This document shows positions 26,543 to 32,814 of a stretch of DNA of 64,000 bases, in pieces (within the stretch, counting starts at the first letter, position 1; each line of letters opens with the position of its first letter). This DNA comes from a phage. The notes beneath the pieces are model-generated. The model searched no databases. It worked only from the letters and a program-made list of their open reading frames with translations, and was not told the DNA's origin. A program made the position numbers and the translations under genes. The stretch is taken from the sequence record PX880099.1, one strand, 5' to 3'.

Positions 26543-26571
26543 TTGACAGGGGATCGGCGTTATATTATATT
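26543..26571 (+). promoter_or_regulatory. sigma70-type promoter with palindrome over the -35
   Basis: TTGACA-17-TATATT; ATCCCCT-ATTGAC-AGGGGAT inverted repeat. Confidence 0.45.
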
Positions 26572-27036: not shown

Positions 27037-27051
27037 TTGACAACAAAACAA

Positions 27052-27077
27052 GGGCGCACCAAGCGCCCTTTCTTTTT
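27052..27077 (+). terminator. rho-independent terminator
   Basis: GGGCGC-ACCAA-GCGCCC followed by TTTCTTTTT; closes the PeSL gene cluster. Confidence 0.65.
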
Positions 27078-29000: not shown

Positions 29001-29210
29001 ATGAAGAATTTGAAAACTGTCACAATGTTCTTGACTAATCCTACACGTGTGCAAGCACTGGCTAAAGCCAGCCGTGTAGCTGTAGAATTCCAAAACTTTA
29101 AGCCGTCCGTTGTGACAGGCAGTGAAACGTGTGTTATCGATTTCATTAACGAATACTTCCGAGGGAATCCGGTTGGTCGTTACTTTATTAAGGGTCTGAA
29201 GGATGCATAG
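29001..29210 (+). CDS. hypothetical protein
   Basis: 69 aa ORF, SD GAGGAG. Confidence 0.5.
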   Translation: MKNLKTVTMFLTNPTRVQALAKASRVAVEFQNFKPSVVTGSETCVIDFINEYFRGNPVGRYFIKGLKDA

Positions 29211-29211
29211 C

Positions 29212-29433
29212 ATGAAACGCATGAAAATTCGTATTGAGAATGATGGTGGTTATAAAGGACTTACCCGTGCAAAATTCCCACTTGTGTTGGAAGCTACGGT
29301 GGAATACAGTGGGCTTGCTCATGTGCGATTCTCGAAGATGATGGAAGTGCAGGAATGGTTTTGGGACGAGATAGATGCACGAGAAGGGGAAGATTATGTT
29401 TTCTTTCCTCACGAATATGAAATTGTTTATTAA
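29212..29433 (+). CDS. hypothetical protein
   Basis: ATG (MKRMKIR) after AAGGA. Confidence 0.45.
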   Translation: MKRMKIRIENDGGYKGLTRAKFPLVLEATVEYSGLAHVRFSKMMEVQEWFWDEIDAREGEDYVFFPHEYEIVY

Positions 29434-29685: not shown

Positions 29686-30143
29686 GACAATTCACTATAC
29701 TGGCAGCTTATGTGCAATGTGTTCACGATTATGTTAGTGCTCATACAGGTTTGCTGGAAGTTACCAGTAAAATTGAAGGTAATATGGGTACTGTCTGTGT
29801 GCAACATACTTTATCCAATGTGCCGTTTAAAGTGTTCACTGTTGTAGCTGCCGATTACAATCGTGTAGATGTGCGTTTCTTGGATCATAATTTTCGTAAC
29901 GCACTAGATAATATCGAAGATTATCTTCCCGTGAAACCTTTGTCATTTCCACCAAGTCGTGCAAATAATGTAGTGACAAATCTTAATGAAAGAAATGTGG
30001 CTATGCACAAAAAAGTCCGTCAACTGAAAATGCTGATGGAAATGCAAGAAGAGATTGAAAAAGAACTGAAAGAAGATTTTGGTATGCTTCCAAAAGACGC
30101 TTTGAAATGGTATGATGAACTAGGAGGAGAAAGTTATGAATAA
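29682..30143 (+). CDS. hypothetical protein
   Basis: 153 aa ORF, SD GGGGAGG. Confidence 0.55.
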   Translation: MRQFTILAAYVQCVHDYVSAHTGLLEVTSKIEGNMGTVCVQHTLSNVPFKVFTVVAADYNRVDVRFLDHNFRNALDNIEDYLPVKPLSFPPSRANNVVTNLNERNVAMHKKVRQLKMLMEMQEEIEKELKEDFGMLPKDALKWYDELGGESYE

Positions 30144-30330
30144 AGGAACTACTGTATATTTAGTGACTAAGAACACCCCAGGTTGGAATCAGTGCACAAC
30201 GACTCCATATAAGATTTGTGCAACACTGGAACTAGCACAACGTGCAGAAGCGGAAGTTGATGCTATGCGATACAGCTACGGGGAGATCATTCCTTTCACT
30301 CTGGAACAAGAAGGAGCACATAGTGTTTAA
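30136..30330 (+). CDS. stand-alone copy of the family-B C-terminal module
   Basis: VYLVTK...LELAQRAEAE...YGEIIPF resembles C-termini of the four family-B genes. Confidence 0.5.
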   Translation: MNKGTTVYLVTKNTPGWNQCTTTPYKICATLELAQRAEAEVDAMRYSYGEIIPFTLEQEGAHSV

Positions 30331-30778
30331 GGTAGGGTTTACTTATAAATTCAAAAGCGTTGCTGACCAAGGAGATATGGCAACACATGACAAAGCAAAT
30401 ATTGCTGTTTGCCAAGCGATTGGAAACGAAGTTTTCAAAGTTATGAATACAGATGATAAGTATGGTCATGTTCTTGAGTTTTATATCAATGGTACCCTCT
30501 ATACAGCAGGTGTTACCCCAGGGTTTAATTCGTATACTTATTTGATTGATAACGAAGAATTTAAATATTTTGAAGAAGTAAAGGAGGAAACAATGGGTAA
30601 AGCAGAACCACAATGGCATGTTGTGATCGTAGGATCAGAGTGTGTAGATGTTTGTTCTAGTTTTGAAAAAGCTTCTGAAGTCGCTACAAAAGCTAAGAAG
30701 GACTATCCGTCGAAGACGGTTGAGATTTACGCTCGTGTTGCAGTAGCAAACGCCACAATCACTATTGATAAGGAGTAA
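30323..30778 (+). CDS. paralog family B member 1 (GTG start)
   Basis: N-terminus (M)FKVGFTYKFKS after AAGGAG; conserved C-terminal VEIYARV. Confidence 0.55.
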   Translation: MFKVGFTYKFKSVADQGDMATHDKANIAVCQAIGNEVFKVMNTDDKYGHVLEFYINGTLYTAGVTPGFNSYTYLIDNEEFKYFEEVKEETMGKAEPQWHVVIVGSECVDVCSSFEKASEVATKAKKDYPSKTVEIYARVAVANATITIDKE

Positions 30779-30783
30779 AGCCA

Positions 30784-31242
30784 ATGTTCAAAGAAGGTCA
30801 TGTCTACCGTTTCCAGGATGAGGATTATATGCGACTATATTCTACCTTTGATAACAGTATTGCGGCTATCATTGGAGAGAATTTTTTCGAGGTGTTGAGC
30901 ACTGATGCAAATGGTAATATCTTGTCAATGGTTGTAATAGGTATGAGAGATGGTATTATCACTGCTGGTGATGGGGATCGTTACATAATCAATTCTGCTC
31001 ATATAGATTATTTTGTTGACGGTGGTGTTCGTGGTGGTCGTGGAAAACCCCAAGAAGAACCTGTTGATACGACAAAAGAAGAGTGGTATGTTGTAATGAC
31101 TGATGACACCTGTATTTCTGGATTTGAAAGTTATGAAGAAGCTTTGAAAGAAGCAGCAGAGCATAAAATGGCTAATCCTACAGAAGAGGTTGAAGTTTAT
31201 AAACGTCTGGTTGTTGCTACCATCGGCGTATCTTTTGTTTAA
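30784..31242 (+). CDS. paralog family B member 2
   Basis: MFKEGHVYRFQ...VEVYKRL. Confidence 0.55.
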   Translation: MFKEGHVYRFQDEDYMRLYSTFDNSIAAIIGENFFEVLSTDANGNILSMVVIGMRDGIITAGDGDRYIINSAHIDYFVDGGVRGGRGKPQEEPVDTTKEEWYVVMTDDTCISGFESYEEALKEAAEHKMANPTEEVEVYKRLVVATIGVSFV

Positions 31243-31254
31243 AAGGGGAATGTT

Positions 31255-32040
31255 ATGTTTAAAGTAGGTTTTGTTTATAATTTCAAATCGGAAGATACCA
31301 AAAAGAATTTTGGTAAAGCTAGTATTCGTAACGCTTTCTTTGTAGGTTGCATTCAAGATAGCAAGTTTAAAGTTTTAGATGTTGATTTTCTAGGTTCTGT
31401 GTCAAAGGTGAAGGTATTAGACACAAATAAGATCATCGAAGGTAGTTCTGGGCTTTTTCCTGAAGGCTATAAGCTTGTAAGTTGTATAGATTATAGTCGT
31501 TTTGAAGAACATCCTCCTGAAGATTATGAGGATTCTCCTACAGGAGGTTGTGTCTTTGTAGAAGGTGGTGTCTATAAGTTTGCAAGTGAACAAGATCGTA
31601 AGCTTTTCGCCAATTATATTGACGGCGGACAAACGACAAACAATGTAAACCGAAAAATTTCCGATCTTATTGGAGATGATCCTTTCGTGATCACAAAGAT
31701 GGTTGGACAAGATGTAACAGCAATCCGTAGGCTTGTATGTAATACAAATCATGTAGCAGGTGAAGGTTGGTTCAAAGAAGCTTGTGCACTGCTAATCAAA
31801 AGCGATAACCCTTACTTTAAAAATATTAAAAATGCTGTTGAGCCTAAACAAGAGGAACCCGCAGCGAATTTTAAACACTATGCTATTGTTAAAGGTATGA
31901 ATGTCCAACTGGTGTCACATTCTTACGAAGAGATCGCCACAGAAGCAAAAAAGATGAAGGAAGAATACCCAATTTCTACTGTTGAGATCTATGAGCGTAT
32001 TGGTGTTGTTAGTATTGAGCCTACTGCGGTAATAAAATAA
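31255..32040 (+). CDS. paralog family B member 3 (internally duplicated)
   Basis: MFKVGFVYNFKS...GGVYKFAS...VEIYERI. Confidence 0.55.
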   Translation: MFKVGFVYNFKSEDTKKNFGKASIRNAFFVGCIQDSKFKVLDVDFLGSVSKVKVLDTNKIIEGSSGLFPEGYKLVSCIDYSRFEEHPPEDYEDSPTGGCVFVEGGVYKFASEQDRKLFANYIDGGQTTNNVNRKISDLIGDDPFVITKMVGQDVTAIRRLVCNTNHVAGEGWFKEACALLIKSDNPYFKNIKNAVEPKQEEPAANFKHYAIVKGMNVQLVSHSYEEIATEAKKMKEEYPISTVEIYERIGVVSIEPTAVIK

Positions 32041-32049
32041 GGAGCTATT

Positions 32050-32487
32050 ATGTTCAAAGCTAATGCTGTTTACTGTTTCAAAAGTAAAGCTGCCTGTGAA
32101 GCTTTCTCTGTGATCTCGGATGAAAATTTCAAAATGGCAGCTTTGATTGAAGGGTCTTGTTTCCGCGTCGAAGATGTTAGTGAATCAGGGTCTGTTTGCT
32201 CATTGACTTTATTGGACAGCGGGGATATTATTGAAGCTGGACAGTATCCGTTCAGAAGTTGGGAGATATTGTTAGCTCGCGGAGAGCGTAACTTTTTTAT
32301 GTGTGTGTCTGCGGGGGAAGTTGTGAAAGAAACTAATGATGTTTCTGTTTACAATTCTGAATTTATAAGTTATAGTGAGTATCAACATCTGGAAGGCATT
32401 GTTGGTCACTTGTTATCTCTGATTGACGTTGAATGTGACCTGCCTGAATCATTGAAAGAAGAATTGAAAGCATTAGATCTGTTATAA
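32050..32487 (+). CDS. paralog family B member 4
   Basis: MFKANAVYCFKS... Confidence 0.55.
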   Translation: MFKANAVYCFKSKAACEAFSVISDENFKMAALIEGSCFRVEDVSESGSVCSLTLLDSGDIIEAGQYPFRSWEILLARGERNFFMCVSAGEVVKETNDVSVYNSEFISYSEYQHLEGIVGHLLSLIDVECDLPESLKEELKALDLL

Positions 32488-32514: not shown

Positions 32515-32814
32515 ATGAATCTGACCGAACAGTTACGCCGTATTGCAAAAGAAACTTCCTTCAACTTCCCTGTTGAAGAAGTGATCGAGACATGTTTTGC
32601 TGAAGCACGAGCGGGAAACTTTTCAAGGAATTTCACGCCCTCTGATTTTGGTCTGGATAATTCCCCTACCCACCCAGGGGAGATCTACAATCAGGTGAAG
32701 TGGATGGATGAAGCAGTAGCAATTCTTCGTGAGCGTGGGCTTATTGTTTATAAAGAAATGGATCTGAATGGGGCATACGAGTGGATCACTATTGACTGGT
32801 CGGAGGTGAAATAA
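32515..32814 (+). CDS. hypothetical protein
   Basis: 99 aa ORF, SD AAAGGAGAA. Confidence 0.55.
   Translation: MNLTEQLRRIAKETSFNFPVEEVIETCFAEARAGNFSRNFTPSDFGLDNSPTHPGEIYNQVKWMDEAVAILRERGLIVYKEMDLNGAYEWITIDWSEVK

Follow-up and report, generated by a model that had tools for sequence, protein, structure and literature searches.

The 64,000-nucleotide (nt) stretch of phage sequence record PX880099.1 analysed here (the window) contains, at 30136–32487, an array of four small genes, B1 to B4, preceded by a fifth, g0 (Table 1). Very probably the array consists of four GoF/Frd.2/MotB.1-family genes that go back to an ancient duplication and, for B3, to a gene fusion, and that are now dispensable cassettes reshuffled at three joints, with a function that we infer. 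The window belongs to the genus Phapecoctavirus, i.e. to the phAPEC8-like E. coli myoviruses with genomes of ~150 kb (subfamily Stephanstirmvirinae); in a BLAST comparison, the 3.5 kb around the array are 96–98% identical at the nucleotide level to many Phapecoctavirus genomes. Within this accessory region the array genes are co-oriented and tightly packed, and the stretch is highly variable, since its coverage in close relatives spans 6% to 94%.

A first-pass annotation had described four consecutive genes with a common MFK-type start as a tandem paralog family, and both the shared start, on the + strand of B1–B4, and the paralogy are borne out. An N-terminal domain of ~85 amino acids (aa; the N-domain) is common to B1–B4, with a similarity far above chance (Smith-Waterman z 8–14; 0/300 shuffles as high as observed), and BLASTP between paralogs gave E-values of 3e-17 for B1 and B2 and of 7e-9 for B3 and B4. 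The internal duplication noticed in the third member also held up, as a second N-domain (Nb, aa ~100–190) behind the first one (Na). Nb was scored at 96 bits by the family hidden Markov model (HMM), a profile that includes Nb itself among its seeds, and independent support is provided by phrog_3710, which matches aa 98–260 of B3 (2e-42). Nb is the more diverged domain, with pairwise z to other N-domains of 0.8–5.1, lowest versus B4, while Na is the N-domain nearest to T4 GoF and to B4. An AGGAGG sequence at 31540–31545, 4 nt before the first codon of Nb, is a possible relic of a ribosome-binding site (RBS), which suggests an old gene fusion. An HMM search found no extra copy of the N-domain, or of the C-terminal module described below, elsewhere in the window.

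By sequence comparison, B1–B4 are homologs of T4 GoF through their N-domain. T4 GoF (also ComC-alpha; NC_000866, 5842–6267) aligned with B3 Na at a BLASTP E-value of 2e-8 and a Smith-Waterman z of 12.8 (for instance FKILDADYLG vs FKVLDVDFLG), and an HMM built only from the five N-domains of the window matched it at 24.8 bits (E 1.4e-9) over HMM positions 2–85, that is, the whole N-terminal domain (NTD). With the same HMM Frd.2 is weak (10.6 bits), and the relatedness of the array to MotB.1 is marginal (4.6 bits). The goF-annotated PHROGs 13003, 2980 and 8944 match array proteins (4e-7 to 2e-3), and two GenBank records label array members as 'goF mRNA metabolism modulator'. Five residues (F2, Y8, F10, F38 and F83) are invariant across B1–B4 and T4 GoF, all in the hydrophobic core; these core residues are all that is kept, and no conserved polar motif was found across this set. 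A single-sequence, word-indexed search with B3 returned only two proteins. Pfam, NCBIfam and PADLOC gave nothing above threshold for the five proteins, the sub-threshold matches being DUF2782, FRD2, DUF7336 and a SAVED model, and a PDB sequence search found no relatives.

The GoF/Frd.2/MotB.1 family has been described as a set of Tevenvirinae proteins with a predicted five-stranded LSm-/SH3-like NTD, a flexible linker and variable C-terminal domains (CTDs), the nearest solved folds of the NTD being FeoA and DtxR-type SH3 domains; phAPEC8-like phages go unmentioned in that work (Kim et al. 2025, PMC12152347). The window and all its close relatives are Stephanstirmvirinae (Phapecoctavirus and Justusliebigvirus), so that the array lies outside the Tevenvirinae, which widens the range of the family and is no argument against homology. 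Like the T4 proteins, the B proteins combine a barrel NTD with a flexible acidic linker and a variable small CTD; they are also similar in size (~16–17 kDa), acidity (isoelectric point, pI, ~4.5) and non-essentiality, and FeoA, IdeR and ScaR are structural neighbours common to both groups. Unlike the T4 genes, which are dispersed single genes of Straboviridae, the Stephanstirmvirinae genes form a tandem array of four with five N-domains, two of them in a single member (B3), and the C-terminal module of B1–B3 is not found in T4 GoF, Frd.2 or MotB.1.

An AlphaFold2 (AF2) model of B1, obtained from a 13-sequence alignment with a predicted local distance difference test (pLDDT) score of 85, shows barrel strands at aa 7–10, 38–43, 50–55, 58–61 and 83–86, beta1 and beta2 being separated by a helical hairpin. 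A linker at aa 89–94 is modelled as disordered (pLDDT <50) between two confident domains, the second of which has a beta-beta-alpha-beta order (aa 99–137). On this model the N-domain is predicted to be an SH3/FeoA-like ('LSm-like') beta-barrel, the fold of the GoF-family NTD. The resemblance to the SH3-like domains of FeoA, DtxR, IdeR and ScaR is at fold level only (5–15% identity): FeoA (PF04023) was matched structurally at 11% identity with no Pfam match at E<=1, and there is no conservation of metal-binding histidines. The linkers of the array are acidic and Pro-rich, and the window has CTDs of two unrelated types.

Given that the GoF N-domain has been termed LSm-like and that GoF(D25Y) stabilises an mRNA (Kim et al. 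2025, PMC12152347), the B proteins could be true Hfq/Sm-like RNA chaperones binding RNA directly as rings, an idea with which the mildly basic Na of B3 (pI 8.6) would agree. We regard this as highly improbable. In place of an N-terminal helix, two helices lie between beta1 and beta2, the whole proteins are acidic (pI 4.4–5.7, vs 4.6 for GoF) and devoid of a conserved polar motif, and AlphaFold3 gave no confident GoF or MotB.1 multimers (PMC12152347). The combination that marks Hfq/Sm proteins, i.e. an N-terminal helix followed by five strands, the Sm1/Sm2 motifs and RNA-binding rings, was not found in the B proteins.

Downstream of the linker, B1, B2 and B3 have in common a ~55-aa C-module ending in VE(I/V)Y.R (z 8–14). 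All four genes had been thought to end with this module, which is right for three of them but not for B4, whose tail gave z about 0. The C-module is a rare beta-beta-alpha-beta domain: a profile of six modules run against 1.84 billion representative proteins retrieved only 18 at E<=1e-3, including proteins with a GoF-like NTD plus C-module, one 258-aa protein with the B3 layout and stand-alone proteins of ~60 aa (P0131, P0132, P0133 and P0137), the last of which had no match by tblastn against GenBank phages. The fold itself is generic, shared with small alpha/beta sandwiches (SPOR, MzrA, PaaB, RbcS-like), and therefore no function is transferable from it. A ClpS-like function was accordingly set aside as a generic-fold match with no sequence similarity; the C-module is half the size of ClpS (PF02617), has one helix instead of three and no Pfam match, and only 44–45 residues superpose, as compared to the ~80-aa three-helix/three-strand ClpS core. 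Pfam DUF7336 matched one of the six modules (19 bits, E 0.0012, 26 residues), below its gathering threshold of 25 bits. Also among the 18 is a metagenomic protein of 114 aa, P0135, in which the C-module follows a different, small-barrel-like N-terminus (FNIGEKVYHAKYGYGLVE...) that resembles Tudor/CarD-like small barrels; the C-module therefore apparently has partners among several types of small beta-barrel.

The age of the duplications separates our interpretation from the earlier one, which held the tandem duplication and the internal duplication of B3 to be recent and g0 to be a free-standing C-module. That account is consistent with the adjacency, the co-orientation and the shared start motif of the genes, and with a copy number that varies between close relatives, but we consider it very unlikely. 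Protein identity between paralogs is 25–39%, and in the DNA nothing repeats beyond a stretch of ~30 nt where the genes start (73% identity) and some short motifs of the core; a tandem duplication still visible at the DNA level was ruled out on these grounds. Each paralog has its own 95–100% identical ortholog in other phages, and in a metagenomic protein, P0126, the three domains of B3 recur in collinear order at 27% identity (E 3e-22). From the low paralog identity, the short repeats and this distant ortholog it follows that the duplications and the B3 fusion are old, and that what is recent is limited to whole cassettes being lost, gained or fused. As regards g0, stand-alone C-modules do occur among the metagenomic proteins, and its AF2 model has the beta-beta-alpha-beta element order; this order is all that agrees in a model that is unreliable (pLDDT 57) and has no match in BFVD (Foldseek). 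Sequence and profile comparisons gave g0 no support as a C-module (Smith-Waterman z about 0, hhalign probability 0.16%, absence from the C-module HMM matches even at E<=10), and with every test negative or uninformative this assignment was rejected. g0 is not a detectable family member, and its presence or absence in relatives is independent of that of B1.

We then typed the array with N-domain, C-module, g0 and B4-tail profiles in 15 genomes including the window (13 Phapecoctavirus, mostly 95–98% identical, and 2 Justusliebigvirus). Nine layouts were found, eight of them in Phapecoctavirus: g0-B1-B2-B3-B4 (window, ECO340P1, ESCO37), B2-B3-B4 (phAPEC8_ev052), g0-B1-B2-B4 (Mt1B1_P17, ASO2A, tuntematon), B1-B2-B4 (WPEC4), g0-B3-B4 (ukendt), B2-B4 (ESCO5, SKA64), a B2N::B3C hybrid (N-domain of B2, C-module of B3) followed by B4 (phAPEC8) and B4 only (nepoznato). 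The ninth, g0 with one diverged gene of N-domain and C-module, is that of the Justusliebigvirus phages VEcB and SD2. Gene number thus differs between close relatives, one of the comparisons by which the first-pass annotation had proposed to check its claim. B4 is present in 13/13 Phapecoctavirus genomes and absent from L017, a metagenomic contig of genome length, whose single-gene array is a B1N::B5C hybrid; B5 is a fifth, P0125-like paralog carried by another metagenomic contig, L020. Since g0, B1, B2 and/or B3 are missing from some isolated, plaque-forming phages, the comparison of natural genomes indicates that the array genes are probably dispensable. In nepoznato an out-of-frame 3' remnant of B2 is retained, and a deletion has therefore occurred in that lineage.

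Break-points, located by blastn and from junction sequences, place the recombination, as far as the sequences tell, at three short motifs that are conserved and in frame. At one of them, the start motif ATGTT(T/C)AAAG(T) (MFK), lie the break-points of B3 loss, of B1+B2 loss and of g0+B1 loss; the linker sequence CAAGA(A/G)GAACC (QEEP) is the junction of the phAPEC8 hybrid gene, and TTTGAAGAAGT, which encodes YFEEV, that of the metagenomic B1N::B5C hybrid (P0022, L017). The N- and C-halves of such proteins differ in their affinities: P0022 matches B1 at 95% in the N-domain but at 26% in the C-half, whose identity to another paralog is 69%; the halves of P0011 stand at 52% (N) and 89% (C); and the phAPEC8 protein (P0002) joins a B2 N-domain (99%) to a B3 C-module. 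Together with the varying copy number, these identities support the modular build with domain shuffling that had been suggested for the array. A further fusion was seen in P0122 (metagenomic, 141 aa), to which a 29203-type protein (MH.MKRMKIRIE...) contributes its ~50 N-terminal aa and B3 its last ~90 aa, with the joint at EGWF; relative to the window (29203–29433 / 31760–32040), this implies a ~2.5-kb deletion of g0, B1, B2 and most of B3.

We propose that ancient duplication and an old gene fusion (B3) gave rise to the paralogs, and that short-homology recombination at ATGTTYAAAG (MFK), YFEEV and QEEP would delete, insert or fuse whole genes or domains and so give different arrays in near-identical genomes. 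In T4-type hyperplastic regions, small early genes are reportedly shuffled at short conserved boundary sequences, as Arbiol et al. are said to have described in 2010. The array is similar in that small accessory genes come and go with break-points at short boundary sequences; unlike those promoter/stem-loop cassettes, its joints are the coding motifs MFK, YFEEV and QEEP of the paralogs themselves, and they yield in-frame domain hybrids. Conceivably, the conserved in-frame joints are more than a by-product of protein conservation and constitute a built-in combinatorial system that swaps N-domains and C-modules between paralogs and co-infecting phages, which we find quite unlikely. If true, such joints would rapidly create two-domain binders against variable host targets, i.e. 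a diversity generator at the protein level within an accessory region.

With only core residues conserved and with acidic proteins, the B proteins are most likely non-enzymatic binding modules whose targets during takeover would be host factors. If T4 GoF and the goF-rho genetics are taken as a guide, these targets may lie in host RNA metabolism, while direct RNA binding by the B proteins is unlikely; with a varying repertoire, the phage would be tuned to different hosts. A serious rival is a role in counter-defence or host range, in which the proteins would inhibit immune or proteolytic systems of the bacterium and have no part in RNA metabolism, the array then varying with host defences. In its favour, near-identical phages isolated on different strains of E. 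coli, Shigella and Klebsiella differ in which array genes they carry, the small size, acidity and dispensability of the proteins would suit such a role, and wild-type GoF shows no RNA effect (PMC12152347). We nevertheless rate this role as rather unlikely, as PADLOC and NCBIfam gave no sequence match to any known family of defence or anti-defence proteins, the matches by fold are short (42–47 residues) and to a generic alpha/beta sandwich, and the one phenotype that genetics has given for the family, that of GoF suppressors of rho alleles, is about mRNA.

Several points weigh against our interpretation of the array as reshuffled GoF-family cassettes that act on the host. The broader profile search (A2), with 241 proteins that are mostly T4-type GoF, used a profile that included GoF and is not independent evidence. 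Whether an event was a loss or a gain is known only in the case of nepoznato; protein constraint may by itself account for the conservation of the junction motifs, and the in-frame junctions may be survivors of selection and not preferred recombination sites. On the functional side, wild-type T4 GoF has no known activity and only the D25Y mutant stabilises mRNA (gene 41) (PMC12152347), and the acidity of the proteins argues against direct RNA binding. Early expression of the array is presumed from its position and from the T4 analogy, and a promoter and terminator scan of 26–36 kb, including the consensus promoter, gave no enrichment over shuffles.

Table 1. Array genes, their parts and the junction motifs (window positions)
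Feature	Position	Strand	Description
g0	30136–30330	+	64 aa, phrog_24303; precedes the array
B1	30323–30778	+	151 aa; GTG start; starts MFKVGFTYKFKS
B1 GoF-like N-domain	~30326–30580	+	followed by disordered linker
B1 C-module	~30602–30775	+	
B2	30784–31242	+	152 aa; starts MFKEGHVYRFQD; phrog_3710 match 4e-34
B2 N-domain	~30784–31020	+	followed by Gly/Arg, then acidic KPQEEP linker
B2 C-module	~31072–31239	+	
B3	31255–32040	+	261 aa; starts MFKVGFVYNFKS; two N-domains and C-module
B3 Na	~31255–31512	+	
B3 Nb	~31555–31824	+	
B3 C-module	~31864–32037	+	
B4	32050–32487	+	145 aa, phrog_22975; starts MFKANAVYCFKS
B4 GoF-like N-domain	~32050–32307	+	
B4 tail	32308–32484	+	unrelated, acidic, 59 aa
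Start-codon homology block of B3	31253–31287	+	ATGTTTAAAGT...; repeat family D1
Equivalent start block of B1	30323–30355	+	
Equivalent start block of B2	30784–30813	+	
Equivalent start block of B4	32048–32082	+	
QEEP linker microhomology in B2	31049–31061	+	CAAGAAGAACC; B3 counterpart ~31849–31859
YFEEV end-of-N-domain motif in B1	30565–30581	+	TATTTTGAAGAAGT

The gene models are identical to those annotated by GenBank in ECO340P1 and ESCO37. The GTG start of B1 sits 6 nt after the RBS GAAGGAG and overlaps the 3' end of g0, including its stop codon, by 8 nt. Pooled ratios of non-synonymous to synonymous divergence (pN/pS) versus orthologs are 0.10–0.17 for g0 and B1–B4 (0.11 for g0), and all five are therefore real genes under purifying selection. 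The synonymous divergence (pS) of g0 from its orthologs is 0.35, i.e. 4–10x that of the adjacent B genes (0.03–0.08), so that g0 has a history different from its neighbours, in a mosaic manner.

Two more paralog pairs flank the array, 28577–28951/33760–34074 and 29203–29433/34470–34691 (Smith-Waterman z 15.1 and 16.0), in agreement with the repeated pVOG labels VOG7392 and VOG6032 in the ukendt annotation; they suggest that a block of small genes surrounding the B array was duplicated as a segment long ago. Downstream, both metagenomic contigs carry a conserved ~65-nt spacer with a TTGACA box (L017, 3940–4030; L020, 4412–4500) between the array and a homolog of window 32515–32814, instead of which the window has a 27-nt gap after B4. 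Upstream, at 27050–27070 and ~3 kb from the array, a hairpin (AAGGGCGC-loop-GCGCCCTT) with a T-run on either strand resembles a strong bidirectional terminator, and a near-consensus TTGACA-17-TATATT is present at 26543–26571. Two database records, MG065650.1 ('Campylobacter phage B15') and OP562383.1 ('Acinetobacter phage vB_AbaM_ABPW7'), are ~97% identical to this Phapecoctavirus region, and their host labels look doubtful.

The array reveals no new kind of system and is nothing unusual in the accessory region of a large phage. It does extend the recently defined GoF/Frd.2/MotB.1 family beyond T4-like phages, and it is a clean example of paralogous phage accessory genes that are reshuffled at 10–30-nt homologies with their reading frames intact. 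The natural variants, with arrays of one to four genes, amount to a near-complete series of deletions and fusions, which could help to find the function of GoF-type proteins.

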